Sequence record: OQ420740.1 | DNA length: 64,000 nt | Source of the DNA: Escherichia phage B9-1 | Direction: 5' to 3' (one strand) | In this document: one piece after another, positions 3,995 through 63,981 of the stretch | How the letters are laid out: each line of letters begins with the position of its first letter | Position numbering within the stretch: the stretch's first letter is position 1 | The notes under the pieces: generated by a model | What the model saw: only the letters and a program-made list of their open reading frames with translations | What the model was told of the DNA's origin: nothing | The model's database searches: none | Position numbers and translations under genes: made by a program

Positions 3995-4003
3995 AGAGGG
4001 TAA

Positions 4004-4270
4004 ATGAAATTAACTCAGTTTTTATGGGGGTTGGTTGCGGCATCTGATGACCCTACGAAAGTGTCCCAATCTAAGCTATGGTCAAACATAGGCATGGCAG
4101 TGATGACTGGGGTGTTTATTCATATGGGGTACAATGATACGCTTCCTGAATGGTATGCGTGGATATACGCACCTTCGGTAGCTTGCCCCCAGCTTATTAG
4201 CAAATTCATCTCGCTCCGGTGGGGTTGCCAGCACCCTGACCACGTTAAAAACGAAGAGCAAAAAGCTTAA
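4004..4270 (+). CDS. hypothetical small protein
   Basis: 88 aa ORF with SD AGAGGG; hydrophobic central segment; function unknown. Confidence 0.45.
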   Translation: MKLTQFLWGLVAASDDPTKVSQSKLWSNIGMAVMTGVFIHMGYNDTLPEWYAWIYAPSVACPQLISKFISLRWGCQHPDHVKNEEQKA

Positions 4271-4279
4271 GGAGAAATC

Positions 4280-6025
4280 ATGGCGCAAGACATGACAAGC
4301 TTTGAGCAGGCGGTAGATCAAGTAATTGTTGATTCTGAACGTTTGCACTTGGTTGTCAACGGCAACGCTGTGGATGAAGTTGTCGTAGAGGATGGGACCA
4401 CTATCCCTACGGTACGAAAAGCCATGCTTGACAACCTTTATTTTAAAACGCCACCGATCCCTTGGGCGTATGGTGCATCCACAACAGTTTTTAACCAGTT
4501 GTATGAGTTTAAAGGGGATACAGGCACTCAGTGGTGGTACGCCCCCGCAGCATCAAAATCTAACCCGGTTAGGATGCCAGCAGATCCTTCACAATCTCCG
4601 AACTGGAGATTATACACCGATTCTGCAGTAATGGCAAAATACTACGCAAAACTTAACAGCCCAAGGTTCGAAGGTGACCCGAGAGTACCTACACCTCCGA
4701 TGGATGATAAGTCAGAGTCTATAGCAAACACAGAGTTTGTTGTTGACTATGTGGATAGCATATTTAAAGCCATGGAGGGGATGAAAGTTACTGTAGGATC
4801 TTTGGTGGTAAAAGGTCTTACAGAACTTGCCAACACCATAGTTGGGGGCACCCTTACCTTACACGGACCTGTTAATGGAGCAGATTCTACTGCACGCTTC
4901 AGGAACCTAATCCTTACGGCAAATACTTCTACACTAACTTTTGCGTGGAGCGATCCTAAGCATGCAGACTGGAGAAGCACAGAGCTGCAACCTCATGAAG
5001 TATCAACTCACAGAGTTATAGCTGACACTATAACTTCTGGGAAACCAGTGGCTAATAACAACGATGTGCATTTTGATGGTCTAGGTAATAACTTTTTTGA
5101 CTACGTGTACATTCGTGGTAATGCCATGAAGGCAGCCACCGAACCGACATTGCAGGTTGATGGGACCACTAGGGTTAAGAACCTTGAGGTGACAGGCACC
5201 GTTACAGGGATAACCTACTCTGTAGATGGCACCATGATCTACCCTAGCTATATTGAAAGCACGGGAGATGCACTGATCAATGGAGATTTAGAGGTTGGTG
5301 GATCTATAGTCATTCGTGGCACAGCATCTGTCCAGAACATATCTTTAAATACTCTGAGGGTGAATGAGCGTGCCACTTTTGAAGGAGAGGGGCTTACAGC
5401 CAACAAAGGTGTAATTACCGAGCTGACAACCACCACTCTAACTGCAACAACTGCAAACTCTGAAAACTGCAACGTTACCAGAAACTTGCAGGTAAATGGA
5501 GATGTTAGTTTAAACGCAGCAGGGACGGGCACTACCTACCTTCACAACCTTGAAATATCAGGTACAGTGACTGGGTGGCTGCCAGACTTCTCTAATGTCA
5601 ACTTTGTCTGTAATGGCATTAACTCCAGTGGCAAGATAACCACCTCTCAAGAAATTGAAGCTGGTAAAACTATTACTGCCCCTGCTTTCCATGCAGGGAA
5701 GGTGGAGTTTGACTTAGAGGAGGCTGACGCATCTAGTGGGACATGGACACCTAACGGGCAGGCCAATATGTATGTTGTCCACGCGAAAGGGGATTTTACA
5801 ATAGGGCAATGGCCTGGAACATCGGCTGAAGATAAACCTTACCCGTTCACTGCAATCATCTATGTCATTCAAGATGCTGTAGGCCACAACGTGACTTTAC
5901 ACGATAAATATGCCATACTGTCGGCTACTCCTGTTATTAACAACAAAGCCAACAGTGTCACCTTGCTACAATTGACATATTGTGGTGTTGGTGATATTGT
6001 GGATGTGGTTATTGCACAACGTTAA
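4280..6025 (+). CDS. tail fibre / tail spike-like protein (beta-repeat rich)
   Basis: 581 aa; strong SD AAGGAGA; Gly/Thr/Asn-rich repeated segments (TGTVTGITYS, EISGTVTGW) typical of fibre shafts; in the fibre gene cluster. Confidence 0.55.
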   Translation: MAQDMTSFEQAVDQVIVDSERLHLVVNGNAVDEVVVEDGTTIPTVRKAMLDNLYFKTPPIPWAYGASTTVFNQLYEFKGDTGTQWWYAPAASKSNPVRMPADPSQSPNWRLYTDSAVMAKYYAKLNSPRFEGDPRVPTPPMDDKSESIANTEFVVDYVDSIFKAMEGMKVTVGSLVVKGLTELANTIVGGTLTLHGPVNGADSTARFRNLILTANTSTLTFAWSDPKHADWRSTELQPHEVSTHRVIADTITSGKPVANNNDVHFDGLGNNFFDYVYIRGNAMKAATEPTLQVDGTTRVKNLEVTGTVTGITYSVDGTMIYPSYIESTGDALINGDLEVGGSIVIRGTASVQNISLNTLRVNERATFEGEGLTANKGVITELTTTTLTATTANSENCNVTRNLQVNGDVSLNAAGTGTTYLHNLEISGTVTGWLPDFSNVNFVCNGINSSGKITTSQEIEAGKTITAPAFHAGKVEFDLEEADASSGTWTPNGQANMYVVHAKGDFTIGQWPGTSAEDKPYPFTAIIYVIQDAVGHNVTLHDKYAILSATPVINNKANSVTLLQLTYCGVGDIVDVVIAQR

Positions 6026-60779: not shown

Positions 60780-61108
60780 TAGTCTTCCCCCAAGTTCAAA
60801 GGCCCTAAGATCTCATATGCCAGATTAGAGGTTACCAGGGGATCTTCTGCATCTTTAGTATTATACCACCCGTGAATAACCAGAGTCCCACTTTGCTTCA
60901 TGTCTAACTGGAACTGTTCTGCCGTTTCCTCATCCATCTCCAAGATCTCCATGAGGTATTTGATGTTAGGAAGGTGTGCAGCTGTTACAGTCCCCTCTAC
61001 TAGGCCTTCAGGCCAACCTACATCCGGATGACAAGTAGGGACCAGAGAGGTCAGCTTGATAGTGTATGCTTTTTCTGCACGAGCCTTCAGTAACGGATCA
61101 ATTTTCAT
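60779..61108 (-). CDS. small acidic protein (leftward family)
   Basis: 109 aa; TAATG coupling on both sides. Confidence 0.55.
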   Translation of the reverse strand: MKIDPLLKARAEKAYTIKLTSLVPTCHPDVGWPEGLVEGTVTAAHLPNIKYLMEILEMDEETAEQFQLDMKQSGTLVIHGWYNTKDAEDPLVTSNLAYEILGPLNLGED

Positions 61109-61458
61109 TATTCTTCCTCCTCTTCGGTGCCTGCTTCCAGTAGTAAGTTAAGAACATCTTCAGCAGAAGGTTCGTAGAACTCTTGGCCTTCGTTGTCGAT
61201 GATGCTATAGTCATCACCACGAATAATCAGAGGATCGTCATCAAAACCTTCAAGACCTTTAACAACGACAACACGGTCGATTGCCATCATTGTAAGAACT
61301 TTATCGACATCTTCCTCTGCTACACCATACTGCAGCAGAATGTCTTTGGTAGGAGGAACAGCATCAACCACAACACCGTTACCAAAACCTTCCGGGAGTT
61401 TAGCTAAAATATCTTCCGGAACCGCATTCATATCAAAACCTGTGATCTCTACTTTCAT
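61108..61458 (-). CDS. small acidic protein (poly-Glu C-terminus)
   Basis: 116 aa ending EAGTEEEEE. Confidence 0.55.
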   Translation of the reverse strand: MKVEITGFDMNAVPEDILAKLPEGFGNGVVVDAVPPTKDILLQYGVAEEDVDKVLTMMAIDRVVVVKGLEGFDDDPLIIRGDDYSIIDNEGQEFYEPSAEDVLNLLLEAGTEEEEE

Positions 61459-61716
61459 TTACAGCACCTCTTCGTCAACTACTTCATAAAAATGGCTCGG
61501 GATTGCAATAGCGTTCTCACCTTCACCTACAAACACAGTCCCGTCAAGGATCAACATCATAAGAATGTCTGTAATATCCTCCTCCGGAACGTTGCCAAAA
61601 CCTTTAATCAACTTATATGTCGGGACATTCGCCTCTAGGATGTCGCCATCTTTAGAACGGAAATCAACACCTTCCTGAATCTCTGCCGTTTCAAGGTTTT
61701 TCAATTTAATCTTCAT
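61459..61716 (-). CDS. small acidic protein, paralog of 62885..63154
   Basis: ATG 61716 with SD AGGAGA; MKIKLKNLETAEIQEG...YEVVDEEVL parallels MKIKLFQTELADKNCG...YEVVEE. Confidence 0.55.
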   Translation of the reverse strand: MKIKLKNLETAEIQEGVDFRSKDGDILEANVPTYKLIKGFGNVPEEDITDILMMLILDGTVFVGEGENAIAIPSHFYEVVDEEVL

Positions 61717-61749
61717 CAATCAGTCTCCTAATCTTGTTAAGATGAAGGT

Positions 61750-62884: not shown

Positions 62885-63154
62885 TTACTCTTCTACAACC
62901 TCATACACATCCGGAGTTACAATCAACTCCTCTCCATTACCCGGAGCAACAAACACTACCAAACCTTCCGGTGTGTGCTTTTTAGCCATCTCGATGACAT
63001 CTTCTCGCAGAGCTGGCTCCATCAGATCAAAACCTTCACCCAGGGCATCACGAACCACCTTCATGTAGTCAACTGGTTGTGCTTCAACGATCATGCCTTC
63101 AACCAGTCCACAGTTTTTGTCTGCCAGCTCAGTTTGGAATAATTTAATTTTCAT
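62885..63154 (-). CDS. small acidic protein, paralog of 61459..61716
   Basis: 89 aa, SD GGAGA. Confidence 0.55.
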   Translation of the reverse strand: MKIKLFQTELADKNCGLVEGMIVEAQPVDYMKVVRDALGEGFDLMEPALREDVIEMAKKHTPEGLVVFVAPGNGEELIVTPDVYEVVEE

Positions 63155-63180: not shown

Positions 63181-63282
63181 TTAATAGCCGTAACCTAACA
63201 CATTAACTACAACTGCGATTGCAAACATAATTTCAAAGCATGCAATCTCTACATTTGGGATTAATTTCTTAATCGTGCCCAT
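63181..63282 (-). CDS. putative hydrophobic micro-protein (33 aa)
   Basis: ATG after SD GAGGTG, directly downstream of the HPF-like gene; MGTIKKLIPNVEIACFEIMFAIAVVVNVLGYGY. Confidence 0.3.
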   Translation of the reverse strand: MGTIKKLIPNVEIACFEIMFAIAVVVNVLGYGY

Positions 63283-63297
63283 TGTAGCACCTCAATC

Positions 63298-63609
63298 TCA
63301 AAAGTCAATCTTTACTTTGCCTTTTCCCTTACCTTTCTTTCCACCACACTTAGCCAACTGGCGTGCTGCAACATCTACCATACGGTCAGTTGCCTCGTAA
63401 GCATCACTACCTTTAGCTTTGGCGATAACTTCTTTTCCAGAAGTGTCAAAAATGAAAGCCATAACTTCCTGGTGATCATTTTCAACTTTTACACTCACAC
63501 GTGCATAGTTGGCAGAGGGGTGCAAACGCTCCAGCTTGGACATTTTGTTGGAAATGAAAGACACCATACCTTCAGTGATCTCTACGTTGCCAGTGATTTC
63601 AATTTGCAT
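63298..63609 (-). CDS. hpf: ribosome hibernation promoting factor homolog (HPF / RaiA / YfiA family)
   Basis: 103 aa; N-terminus MQIEITGNVEITEGMVSFISNKMSKLERL closely follows the bacterial HPF consensus MQLNITGHNVEITEALREFVTAKFAKLEQ; family-typical length; Lys/Gly-rich C-terminal tail. Confidence 0.7.
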   Translation of the reverse strand: MQIEITGNVEITEGMVSFISNKMSKLERLHPSANYARVSVKVENDHQEVMAFIFDTSGKEVIAKAKGSDAYEATDRMVDVAARQLAKCGGKKGKGKGKVKIDF

Positions 63610-63627
63610 AATGTGTTCCTTTTAAAG

Positions 63628-63647
63628 AAGAGGGACCAACCCCTCTT
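63628..63647 (-). other. 5' leader stem-loop of the HPF-like gene
   Basis: Minus strand AAGAGGG-GTTGGT-CCCTCTT (7-bp stem) between the promoter and SD AAAGGAA. Confidence 0.4.
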
Positions 63648-63655
63648 TGAAAACA

Positions 63656-63684
63656 ATGATACTAAATCTGAAGCGTTGTGTCAA
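63656..63684 (-). promoter_or_regulatory. sigma70-like promoter (minus strand) for the HPF-like gene
   Basis: Minus strand TTGACA (63684..63679), 17-bp spacer, TATCAT (63661..63656). Confidence 0.5.
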
Positions 63685-63690
63685 CAGTTT

Positions 63691-63981
63691 TTACAACTTG
63701 TTGTCGATAGTTTTTAAAATATCTACTGCAAGATCTGCCATTTTACGAACATACTCTGCAAACTCAACAGGATCCTTGATCAATGAGTTCACAGGGTCAT
63801 ACCCTAAAGCGTTTAAAATGGCTACAGCATCCACGACCTTCTCATCATTTGCGAAGATCTCACCGTCAAACTTGTAGGTCCATTTTGAGTCAATCTTGAC
63901 ATCGCAGGATTGGTCCATGCTTATTACACCATCTTTTTTAAACGATCCGGTGTTATCAGCGTCCAAAACTAAATCCATCAT
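63691..63981 (-). CDS. hypothetical small acidic protein
   Basis: 96 aa ORF whose start lies 20 nt from the window edge. Confidence 0.5.
   Translation of the reverse strand: MMDLVLDADNTGSFKKDGVISMDQSCDVKIDSKWTYKFDGEIFANDEKVVDAVAILNALGYDPVNSLIKDPVEFAEYVRKMADLAVDILKTIDNKL

Follow-up and report, generated by a model that had tools for sequence, protein, structure and literature searches.

Introduction

Ribosome hibernation governs bacterial dormancy and antibiotic tolerance, and probably the phage infection of non-growing cells as well; the infection of such cells is a limit on gut phage therapy, a setting in which rV5-like phages are used against Escherichia coli O157. A gene of Escherichia phage B9-1 (OQ420740.1), of which one stretch of 64,000 nucleotides (the window) was analysed, raises the question of whether a lytic phage carries a working hibernation factor of its own, and what such a protein would do to the ribosomes of its host. 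The first-pass annotation of the window, made from the letters alone, had regarded the 103-aa product of this gene as a homolog of HPF/RaiA and a virus-encoded factor of this family as something unusual.

Both the existence of the gene and its homology to HPF are already published, and the ribosome test has already been run once, in 2019. The gene has been annotated since the deposit of rV5 in 2006; the GenBank record of that phage (DQ832317) gives it as ORF144 (ABI79209), a “sigma 54 modulation factor” by similarity to Klebsiella P17161, and also contains a promoter, P144. Across records, the product is named “sigma 54 modulation factor,” “ribosome hibernation factor,” “hpf” or “RaiA,” and in a few cases, wrongly, “ATP-dependent protease La.” A phage HPF was reported by Mizuno et al. 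(2019; Nat Commun 10:752, PMC6375957; preprint 2017), who listed it in rV5, FV3, JES-2013, typing phage 14, FFH2 and the jumbo phage GAP32, and hpf was noted again by Mathieu et al. (2020), who counted it as auxiliary in rV5 phages of the gut. Thus, the homology stands, whereas the impression of unusualness is dated.

The ribosome co-sedimentation and 100S profiling that had been proposed as a check likewise exist for the rV5 protein, and their outcome was negative. When rV5 HPF was expressed from pBAD24 in E. coli NM522, its peptides were detected in the crude extract, whereas purified 70S and 100S ribosomes yielded none, and the 100S peak was unchanged; the culture had been collected at OD600 = 1, and the ribosomes were pelleted through a 500 mM NH4Cl cushion (Mizuno et al., 2019; PMC6375957). 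The authors named growth phase, stripping by salt and a genuine loss of binding as possible causes, regarded the result as inconclusive, and speculated that the viral HPF competes with the host HPF and so prevents the formation of dimers (PMC6375957). What the present analysis adds is a residue-level reason why an assay at high salt may have missed binding, and the finding that the acquisition of the gene is old and genus-defining.

Family Membership of the Phage Protein

The coordinates of the gene and of the elements around it are collected in Table 1. The product (MQIEITGNVEITEGMVSFISNKMSKLERLHPSANYARVSVKVENDHQEVMAFIFDTSGKEVIAKAKGSDAYEATDRMVDVAARQLAKCGGKKGKGKGKVKIDF) matches the Pfam profile PF02482 (Ribosomal_S30AE) with 48.9 bits (E 1.1e-12; gathering score, 23.7 bits) in an alignment that covers residues 3-88 of the protein and positions 1-83 of the 88 in the profile, and it also scores above the curated cut-off of the NCBIfam HPF/YfiA family model TIGR00741 (47.1 against 40.9 bits). 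The possibility that the resemblance would dissolve in a profile search is thereby removed. The two equivalog models are not reached: the short HPF (YhbH) model NF007780 gives 55.5 bits, far under its cut-off of 125 bits, and the RaiA/YfiA model NF007654 gives 19.4 bits, under a cut-off of 158 bits. Judged from these two scores, the phage core is clearly much nearer to HPF than to RaiA. A sequence search of the PDB returned hibernation factors throughout, with E. coli HPF (2rql, E 6.9e-12) at the top, 6h4n and Vibrio cholerae HPF likewise among the best matches, and the YfiA chains only weakly matched (E about 0.1). The N-terminus MQIEITG-NVEITE aligns with MQLNITGNNVEITE of E. coli across a single gap, as the first-pass annotation had noticed, and 37 of 87 aligned residues (about 42%) are identical to E. 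coli HPF. The phage gene is a member of the HPF/RaiA (Ribosomal_S30AE) family and most resembles the short gammaproteobacterial HPF (YhbH).

Within phages, the protein matches phrog_12469 over residues 1-103 (E 5.6e-69), and the gene belongs to the Vequintavirus orthologous group of rV5 gp144 (ORF144). The two are the same gene, with 98% protein identity, the same neighbours and the same P144 promoter; the copy in the window is 103 rather than 105 aa long, ending two codons early, and has N21 and T56, as in vB_EcoM-ECP32.

Table 1. Positions of the HPF gene, its parts and the surrounding elements in the window.
Feature	Position	Strand	Details and basis
HPF gene, open reading frame	63609..63298	-	ATG at 63609, TGA at 63300-63298; 103 aa
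Folded HPF core, codons 1-88	63346..63609	-	Pfam/TIGR matches, AF2 model, Foldseek, dN/dS 0.03-0.11
Lys/Gly-rich disordered tail, codons 89-103 (GGKKGKGKGKVKIDF)	63301..63345	-	pLDDT <50 at 90-103
TGA stop of the HPF gene	63298..63300	-	two codons ahead of the stop in relatives, whose proteins finish in ...KIDFGE or ...KIDFLD
-35 hexamer TTGACA, sigma-70-type promoter (rV5 P144)	63679..63684	-	sequence; annotated in DQ832317
-10 hexamer TATCAT, after a 17-nt spacer	63656..63661	-	sequence
7-bp hairpin AAGAGGG-loop-CCCTCTT, predicted transcript 5′ end	63628..63647	-	MFE -10.4 kcal/mol
Shine-Dalgarno AAGGA, 7 nt before ATG	63617..63621	-	sequence
Second promoter-like site TTGACT-16-TACAAT with TG extension	63281..63308	-	10/12 positions
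Hydrophobic 33-aa small ORF, GAGGTG Shine-Dalgarno	63181..63282	-	phrog_15151, E 3.7e-25

Predicted Structure

An AlphaFold2 (AF2) model built from an alignment of the phage clade and enterobacterial HPFs has a mean pLDDT of 84.6, with values above 90 over most of the core and below 50 for residues 90-103. Its elements follow the order β-α-β-β-β-α (E2-7, H13-29, E33-42, E47-55, E60-67 and H70-89). In a Foldseek search of the PDB, the first 35 places are all occupied by hibernation factors, led by V. cholerae HPF (4hei; TM 0.84/0.93, rmsd 1.0 Å) and including E. coli HPF as bound in the 100S ribosome (6h4n_x; rmsd 1.1 Å, 42% identity); the folds ranking after them are double-stranded RNA-binding domains. 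Superposition on the two HPFs at 1.0-1.1 Å excludes an unrelated fold, the outcome that would have been fatal to the original proposal.

Compared with the gammaproteobacterial HPFs (2rql, 6h4n chain x and 4hei), the phage protein has the same fold, a near-identical N-terminal strand and a similar length, but a Lys/Gly tail takes the place of KHKDKLKQH of the E. coli protein, the gene lies in the early/middle region behind a sigma-70 promoter rather than in an rpoN operon, and the protein (in its rV5 copy) was not recovered with salt-washed ribosomes. E. coli YfiA/RaiA (protein Y; 1n3g and 4v8i) belongs to the same fold family and, like the phage protein, continues past the core at its C-terminus; in the phage the tail is shorter and non-conserved, and the sequence match is much weaker. 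The end of the YfiA tail is acidic, whereas that of the phage tail is basic. The HPF-like proteins of jumbo phages (Cronobacter GAP32 K4F6Q6, Escherichia PBECO4 L7TII8 and Xanthomonas XaC1) share the S30AE fold, but those of GAP32 and PBECO4 are just 21-24% identical to the protein studied here; since the lineages are unrelated and the identity is low, they represent independent acquisitions.

Conservation of the Ribosome Contacts

A cryo-EM preprint on HPF and YfiA of Gram-negative bacteria (10.1101/2025.10.07.680626) describes K80, R83, K87 and K91 as strictly conserved basic contacts, together with K89. In HPF, according to the same work, R83 lies on m4C1402, T53 and residue 62 on m2G966, and H55 and E60 on the C-terminus of uS9; K26 and Q29 are near m3U1498, and residues 8, 32-33, 44-46 and 57 make loop contacts (10.1101/2025.10.07.680626). 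These positions were compared in a MAFFT alignment of the phage protein with 36 diverse bacterial homologs, in E. coli numbering. The phage protein keeps K23, K26, E44, G58, E60, D69, Y71, D75, D79, R83, Q84, K87 and K91, and has an arginine in place of Q29. Position 80 is valine (threonine in the sister lineage described below), where lysine is found in 27 of the 36 bacterial homologs and valine or isoleucine in five; because some bacterial homologs carry valine or isoleucine here, V80 may still permit binding. Glycine stands at position 89 (lysine in 28/36) and valine at position 17 (arginine or lysine in 29/36), and R33 is replaced by serine and both T53 and H55 by phenylalanine. Residue 8 is deleted; the V18/Murica lineage keeps GNNVEIT. 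New basic residues are present at K59, K64, K66, R37 and R76, and four phage-specific patches, LHP (29-31), DHQEV (45-49), AKAKG (63-67) and AYEATD (70-75), are conserved in lineages that are 64% identical to each other.

On this comparison, the central rRNA anchor appears intact and the periphery remodelled. Such a pattern would fit binding at the canonical site with a lower and more salt-sensitive affinity, and a salt-sensitive affinity is a possible reason why the 500 mM NH4Cl wash stripped the protein in the assay of 2019.

The C-terminal Tail

The 15-residue tail has a net charge of about +5, whereas the core is slightly acidic. The length of the protein varies among relatives, from 99 aa in Murica and 101 aa in APCEc02 to 105-106 aa in most, and the tail is encoded by an AAAGG-rich repeat in which slippage or frameshifts alter its length and frame; it is frameshifted in Murica and APCEc02. 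The tail of the sister lineage is also basic but has a different sequence. Unlike the core, the tail is not under strong constraint.

Promoter, Leader and Gene Neighbourhood

The first-pass annotation had assigned the gene a consensus-like promoter of its own, TTGACA-17-TATCAT, and this assignment is sound: the element agrees with the consensus at 11 of 12 positions, lies 46 nt upstream of the ATG of the HPF gene and just after the stop codon (at 63691, minus strand) of the upstream 96-aa gene, and corresponds to the annotated P144. Its hexamers are identical across the Vequintavirus loci compared, with the sole exception of one locus (L008) that has TATTAT, and the -35 TTGACA is also kept in the sister lineage (locus L003). 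Sites with at least 11/12 promoter positions number 21 in the window against 1.64 ± 1.26 in composition-preserving shuffles, an excess of about 13-fold, so that such near-consensus sites are real features of the genome. With its near-consensus hexamers, a spacing within 16-18 nt and its placement, the element has the makings of an E. coli sigma-70 promoter. In rV5, Kropinski et al. (2013) predicted 33 sigma-70 promoters and described genes 82-163 as one transcription unit that includes nucleotide-metabolism and replication genes. The Murica record annotates a ribosome-binding site at the position equivalent to AAGGA.

The stem-loop that had been pointed out in the 5′ leader is present, but its folding energy does not differ significantly from that of shuffles (z -0.7 to -1.0). 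Within Vequintavirus the stem is preserved and the loop variable; the V18/Murica lineage has a weaker form, and the sister lineage has none. No compensatory changes were found among the compared loci, and an Rfam search with the hairpin region gave no match. A role as a regulatory RNA is rejected on these four grounds (energy at the level of shuffles, no Rfam match, no covariation and its loss in the sister lineage), and the hairpin is at most a possible stabilizer of the 5′ end.

Downstream, a second promoter-like site has its -35 hexamer inside the last three codons of the HPF gene; the rV5 record carries no annotation for it, and it probably serves the downstream 89-aa gene. No terminator was predicted downstream of the HPF gene, and the hydrophobic 33-aa ORF, which is annotated in rV5, V18, Murica and JES2013 and absent from the sister lineage, is probably co-transcribed with it. 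The picture of a block of small acidic proteins holds for the neighbours, all of which have a pI of 4.0-4.9, but not for the HPF protein itself (pI 9.0). The PADLOC defence-system models matched neither the HPF protein nor its eight neighbours, and a link to defence or anti-defence is rejected on that basis.

Distribution, Age and Selection

The window comes from a Vequintavirus of the rV5 type: over the 1.2 kb that surrounds the gene, DNA identity is 99.6% with vB_EcoM-ECP32 and 93% with rV5, and this locus is found at at least 90% DNA identity in 117 phage records, spanning 93-99.6%. The HPF protein at at least 90% identity is likewise found in 117 records, all within Vequintavirus. As a control, the DNA polymerase was used as a query; it was found at at least 90% identity in 117 records and at less than 60% in 222; this second set is made up of other Vequintavirinae-like phages, which infect Klebsiella, Cronobacter, Salmonella, Pectobacterium and Erwinia, and of ICP1-like Vibrio phages. 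Because both counts at this identity are 117, the gene is essentially universal in Vequintavirus, and it is absent from the neighbouring genera and from the more distant Vequintavirinae. The flanking genes are shared by rV5, ECP32, V18, Murica, JES2013, FFH2, nom and nomo. Searching phages with E. coli HPF added only scattered unrelated phages, among them XaC1, a jumbo phage, and short contigs of Listeria and faecal origin.

A HMMER pass over 1.84 billion representative proteins gave just 32 matches at E ≤ 1e-3. The nearest is a protein (P0004) that is 64-65% identical, followed by enterobacterial HPF at 44%. It is encoded in the same gene neighbourhood on contigs of 124-137 kb, which align with Vequintavirus at only 73-76% DNA identity, across one third of 8 kb, and constitute the sister lineage referred to above; this lineage was not present in the phage collection, and a scan of IMG/VR yielded two further close loci and no more. 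A protein of 1160 aa (P0127) with nine “HPF-like” stretches proved to be a repeat protein of PPC domains and was set aside as a spurious match.

For the core (codons 2-88), Nei-Gojobori comparison of the copy in the window with twelve other Vequintavirus copies gave dN/dS values of 0.03-0.11 (pooled, 0.056), and against the sister lineage dS is saturated while dN is 0.25-0.28. The HPF core is under strong purifying selection. A recent capture from the host is rejected by the identity of about 42%, by the phage-like GC content (42.6% for the gene against 43.6% for the window) and by a dS that is saturated when the two phage lineages are compared. What the phages carry is an old, ameliorated, fully phage-adapted and genus-defining acquisition, contrary to the “relatively recent” transfer that was suggested in 2019.

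Function of the Phage HPF

The reading that we prefer, holding it to be slightly better than an even bet, is that the gene encodes a functional ribosome-binding factor of the HPF family, which is expressed from a dedicated promoter by the polymerase of the host and docks in the A/P-site channel of the 30S subunit. The host polymerase would transcribe the gene from the near-consensus sigma-70 promoter within an early/middle unit that also contains replication genes, and the product would settle in the head-body channel (the A/P-site region) of the 30S subunit of vacant host ribosomes through K23, K26, R29 and E44 (also numbered K22, K25, R28 and E43), E60, R83, K87 and K91. Binding would probably be weaker or more salt-sensitive than that of host HPF, because K80, K89, R17, R33, T53 and H55 are replaced, and the Lys/Gly tail may add a non-specific affinity for rRNA. 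In slow-growing or starved gut hosts, the phage would supply a factor that parks and protects ribosomes, as a substitute for the stress-induced host factor whose synthesis the phage itself has shut off, and the most plausible benefit, following the logic of auxiliary genes, would be an idle ribosome pool that stays intact and usable for phage translation. The fixation of the gene throughout the genus under strong purifying selection implies that acting on idle ribosomes pays for a lytic phage.

This preference is founded on the profile and PDB matches, the 1.0-1.1 Å superposition and the retained contacts; on the dN/dS of 0.03-0.11, the presence throughout the genus and the copy that is in place in the sister lineage; and on the conserved promoter, which belongs to an over-represented class and lies in a unit with replication genes (Kropinski et al., 2013). 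Several observations count against it. The sole experiment was negative (PMC6375957), the substitutions K80>V, K89>G, R17>V, R33>S, T53>F and H55>F affect the contact surface, the score against the short HPF equivalog is 55.5 rather than 125 bits, and a lytic phage has no obvious use for a general inhibitor of vacant ribosomes. In addition, no homolog of RMF, the partner that E. coli requires for 100S formation, was found among 50,697 phage records at E ≤ 0.1; a phage-encoded RMF partner is rejected accordingly, and the host RMF would have to serve.

Mizuno et al. (2019) proposed instead an anti-hibernation competitor, which keeps host RMF and HPF from locking ribosomes into 100S dimers (PMC6375957), and we consider this unlikely but the foremost of the alternatives. 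By weak and reversible occupancy of the HPF/YfiA site, or by occlusion of the RMF site with its basic tail in the manner of YfiA, whose C-terminal tail blocks RMF in E. coli (as cited in PMC7764885), such a protein would leave the ribosomes of stressed cells open to phage mRNAs. The altered contacts and the apparently salt-labile or absent binding would suit a weak binder, and the tail that follows α2 is about 15 residues long, longer than that of E. coli HPF, as well as disordered and strongly basic. On the other hand, an occupant of the A/P channel still blocks tRNA and mRNA, so that occupancy alone wakes no ribosome, and the 100S fraction was unchanged on expression (PMC6375957). The poor conservation of the tail, which is frameshifted in Murica and APCEc02 and differs in the sister lineage, argues against a precise steric role, and the core is nearer to HPF than to RaiA (55.5 vs 19.4 bits).

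It is also tempting to speculate, as a rather doubtful variant, that the protein is a re-tooled HPF that binds transiently as an antagonist and keeps the decoding centre free of host HPF, YfiA or RMF, or of a defence toxin that targets ribosomes, by evicting or excluding them. The combination of a retained fold with its central arginine and lysines, a remodelled outer ring of contacts and a floppy poly-Lys/Gly tail suggests this idea. If it were true, the ribosomes of dormant gut E. coli would be woken or shielded to the benefit of the phage, and the protein would be the first viral anti-hibernation factor.

A further departure from the preferred ribosome-binding role would be a neo-functionalized HPF fold, in which ribosome binding has been lost and a dsRBD-like α/β surface and the basic tail have been turned to a different RNA or protein partner, such as a transcript of phage or host, a tRNA, a host nuclease or a defence effector; we regard this, too, as rather improbable. 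It would account for the lack of peptides in purified ribosomes despite expression (PMC6375957), and it agrees with the loss of about six conserved contacts to rRNA and uS9, with the phage-specific patches common to two lineages, with the isolation of the clade (32 matches in 1.84 billion representatives, and a nearest non-phage relative at 44%) and with the double-stranded RNA-binding domains that Foldseek ranks next. Against it, the most diagnostic rRNA contacts, R83 (m4C1402), K87, K91, K23 and K26, have been kept, no defence model was matched, and the neighbours, all of unknown function, suggest no alternative partner. Finally, a literal “sigma-54 modulation factor” that regulates RpoN-dependent host transcription is exceedingly improbable, and for the family at large the idea is in essence refuted: what speaks for it is the historical family name alone, which was inherited through similarity to Klebsiella P17161 and goes back to hpf being part of the rpoN operon rather than to a demonstrated mechanism, whereas the solved relatives are all ribosome-bound hibernation factors and the phage gene has no rpoN context.

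The Adjacent 89-aa Open Reading Frame

The same name has been attached to a second gene of the region, the 89-aa ORF at 62885..63154, to which ECP32 and further records give the label “sigma 54 modulation factor.” As a second HPF paralog this ORF is rejected, for it has no Pfam S30AE match and belongs to a PHROG of unknown function; the label is an annotation slip propagated from APCEc02.

HPF tail and the downstream ORF

The repeat encoding the Lys/Gly tail of the phage HPF (AAAGGTAAGGGAAAAGGCAAAG, window 63298..63345, minus strand) is a hotspot of indels and frameshifts, as it is in L009-L016, loci of relatives that carry the same gene. The product comprises 99 aa in Murica, 101 aa in APCEc02 and 104-106 aa in the others, and the TGA that ends HPF in the window occupies a codon that reads Leu in ECP32 and Gly in rV5. 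A further indel is located at residue 8, giving GNVEIT or GNNVEIT depending on the sublineage.

The HPF stop is followed, after 15 nt, by a 33-aa ORF equipped with a GAGGTG Shine-Dalgarno sequence, which is annotated in the rV5, V18, Murica and JES2013 records and is missing from L003, a locus of the sister lineage. Probably this ORF shares its transcript with HPF and encodes a small membrane protein.

Features of the window discussed in this section
Feature	Position	Strand	Basis
DNA polymerase gene, intact, 925 aa	33989..36766	+	
33-aa hydrophobic mini-ORF, product MGTIKKLIPNVEIACFEIMFAIAVVVNVLGYGY	63181..63282	-	phrog_15151 match
89-aa acidic ORF	62885..63154	-	phrog_11868 match
Promoter-like TTGACT-16-TACAAT, TG extension	63281..63308	-	sequence match
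Sigma-70 sites, at least 11/12 (examples)	21139, 38233, 43346, 49151	+	consensus match
Sigma-70 sites, at least 11/12 (examples)	63684, 61778, 57726	-	consensus match

Promoter-like sites

At the HPF end, codons I101-D102-F103 supply the -35 hexamer of the promoter-like site, whose -10 hexamer overlaps the start codon (ATG) of the 33-aa ORF. The double use of this sequence may preserve the “...KIDF” end within an otherwise variable tail. No equivalent site is annotated in the rV5 record. Over the whole window, 21 sites match the sigma-70 consensus at 11 or more of 12 positions (1.64 ± 1.26 in shuffles), three of them perfectly, and they are grouped in blocks by strand, an arrangement that fits divergent transcription units.

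Neighboring proteins and misassigned names

HPF (pI 9.0) is the sole basic protein of its block; all eight flanking proteins (86-131 aa) have a pI of 4.0-4.9. The products of the 89-aa ORF and of 61108..61458 and 61459..61719 (minus strand) are weakly paralogous, sharing 23-33% identity over 94-104 aa, together with MKIKL... starts and ...YEVVEE ends.

The 89-aa ORF goes by the name “sigma 54 modulation factor” in several records, among them ECP32, nom and nomo. This name is wrong, because the ORF belongs to phrog_11868, a family annotated as unknown function, and a Pfam search returned neither an S30AE match nor any other. In the APCEc02 record the name is placed on the 89-aa gene and the true HPF is termed “hypothetical”; APCEc02 is cited by later records, and the error has therefore propagated. 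The bov10K2 and SA_NWU records misname the true HPF as well, calling it “ATP-dependent protease La type I.”

P0127, a 1160-aa protein matched in the HMMER search with the phage HPF (E 1e-8, via nine repeated stretches), was rejected as a relative: it is built of PPC pre-peptidase C-terminal domain repeats, and its score is thus an artifact of repeat summing.

Sister lineage and source labels

The Logan/ENA contigs L003-L006 (15.7-126 kb; HPF at 4001-4312) represent an undescribed sister lineage of Vequintavirus, for which no record was found in the collection of 50,697 phage records. Their HPF shows 64% identity and the gene order is unchanged relative to Vequintavirus, the DNA aligns at 73-76% nucleotide identity over only about one-third of 8 kb, and the hairpin is missing from the HPF leader.

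Eighteen records of the MG0656xx series (e.g., MG065672), obtained from chicken, are labeled “UNVERIFIED: Campylobacter phage.” These are Vequintavirus genomes with at least 95% identity to E. coli phages in the HPF region; probably, either the host is mislabeled or there was carry-over of E. coli phages.

DNA polymerase gene

The alignment of the DNA polymerase covers only 73-87% in JES2013, FFH2, PDX, JEP1 and several other relatives. Because an HNH endonuclease is annotated beneath the match in some of these records (JES2013 and FFH2), the partial alignments suggest that a homing endonuclease splits the polymerase gene in these two phages.
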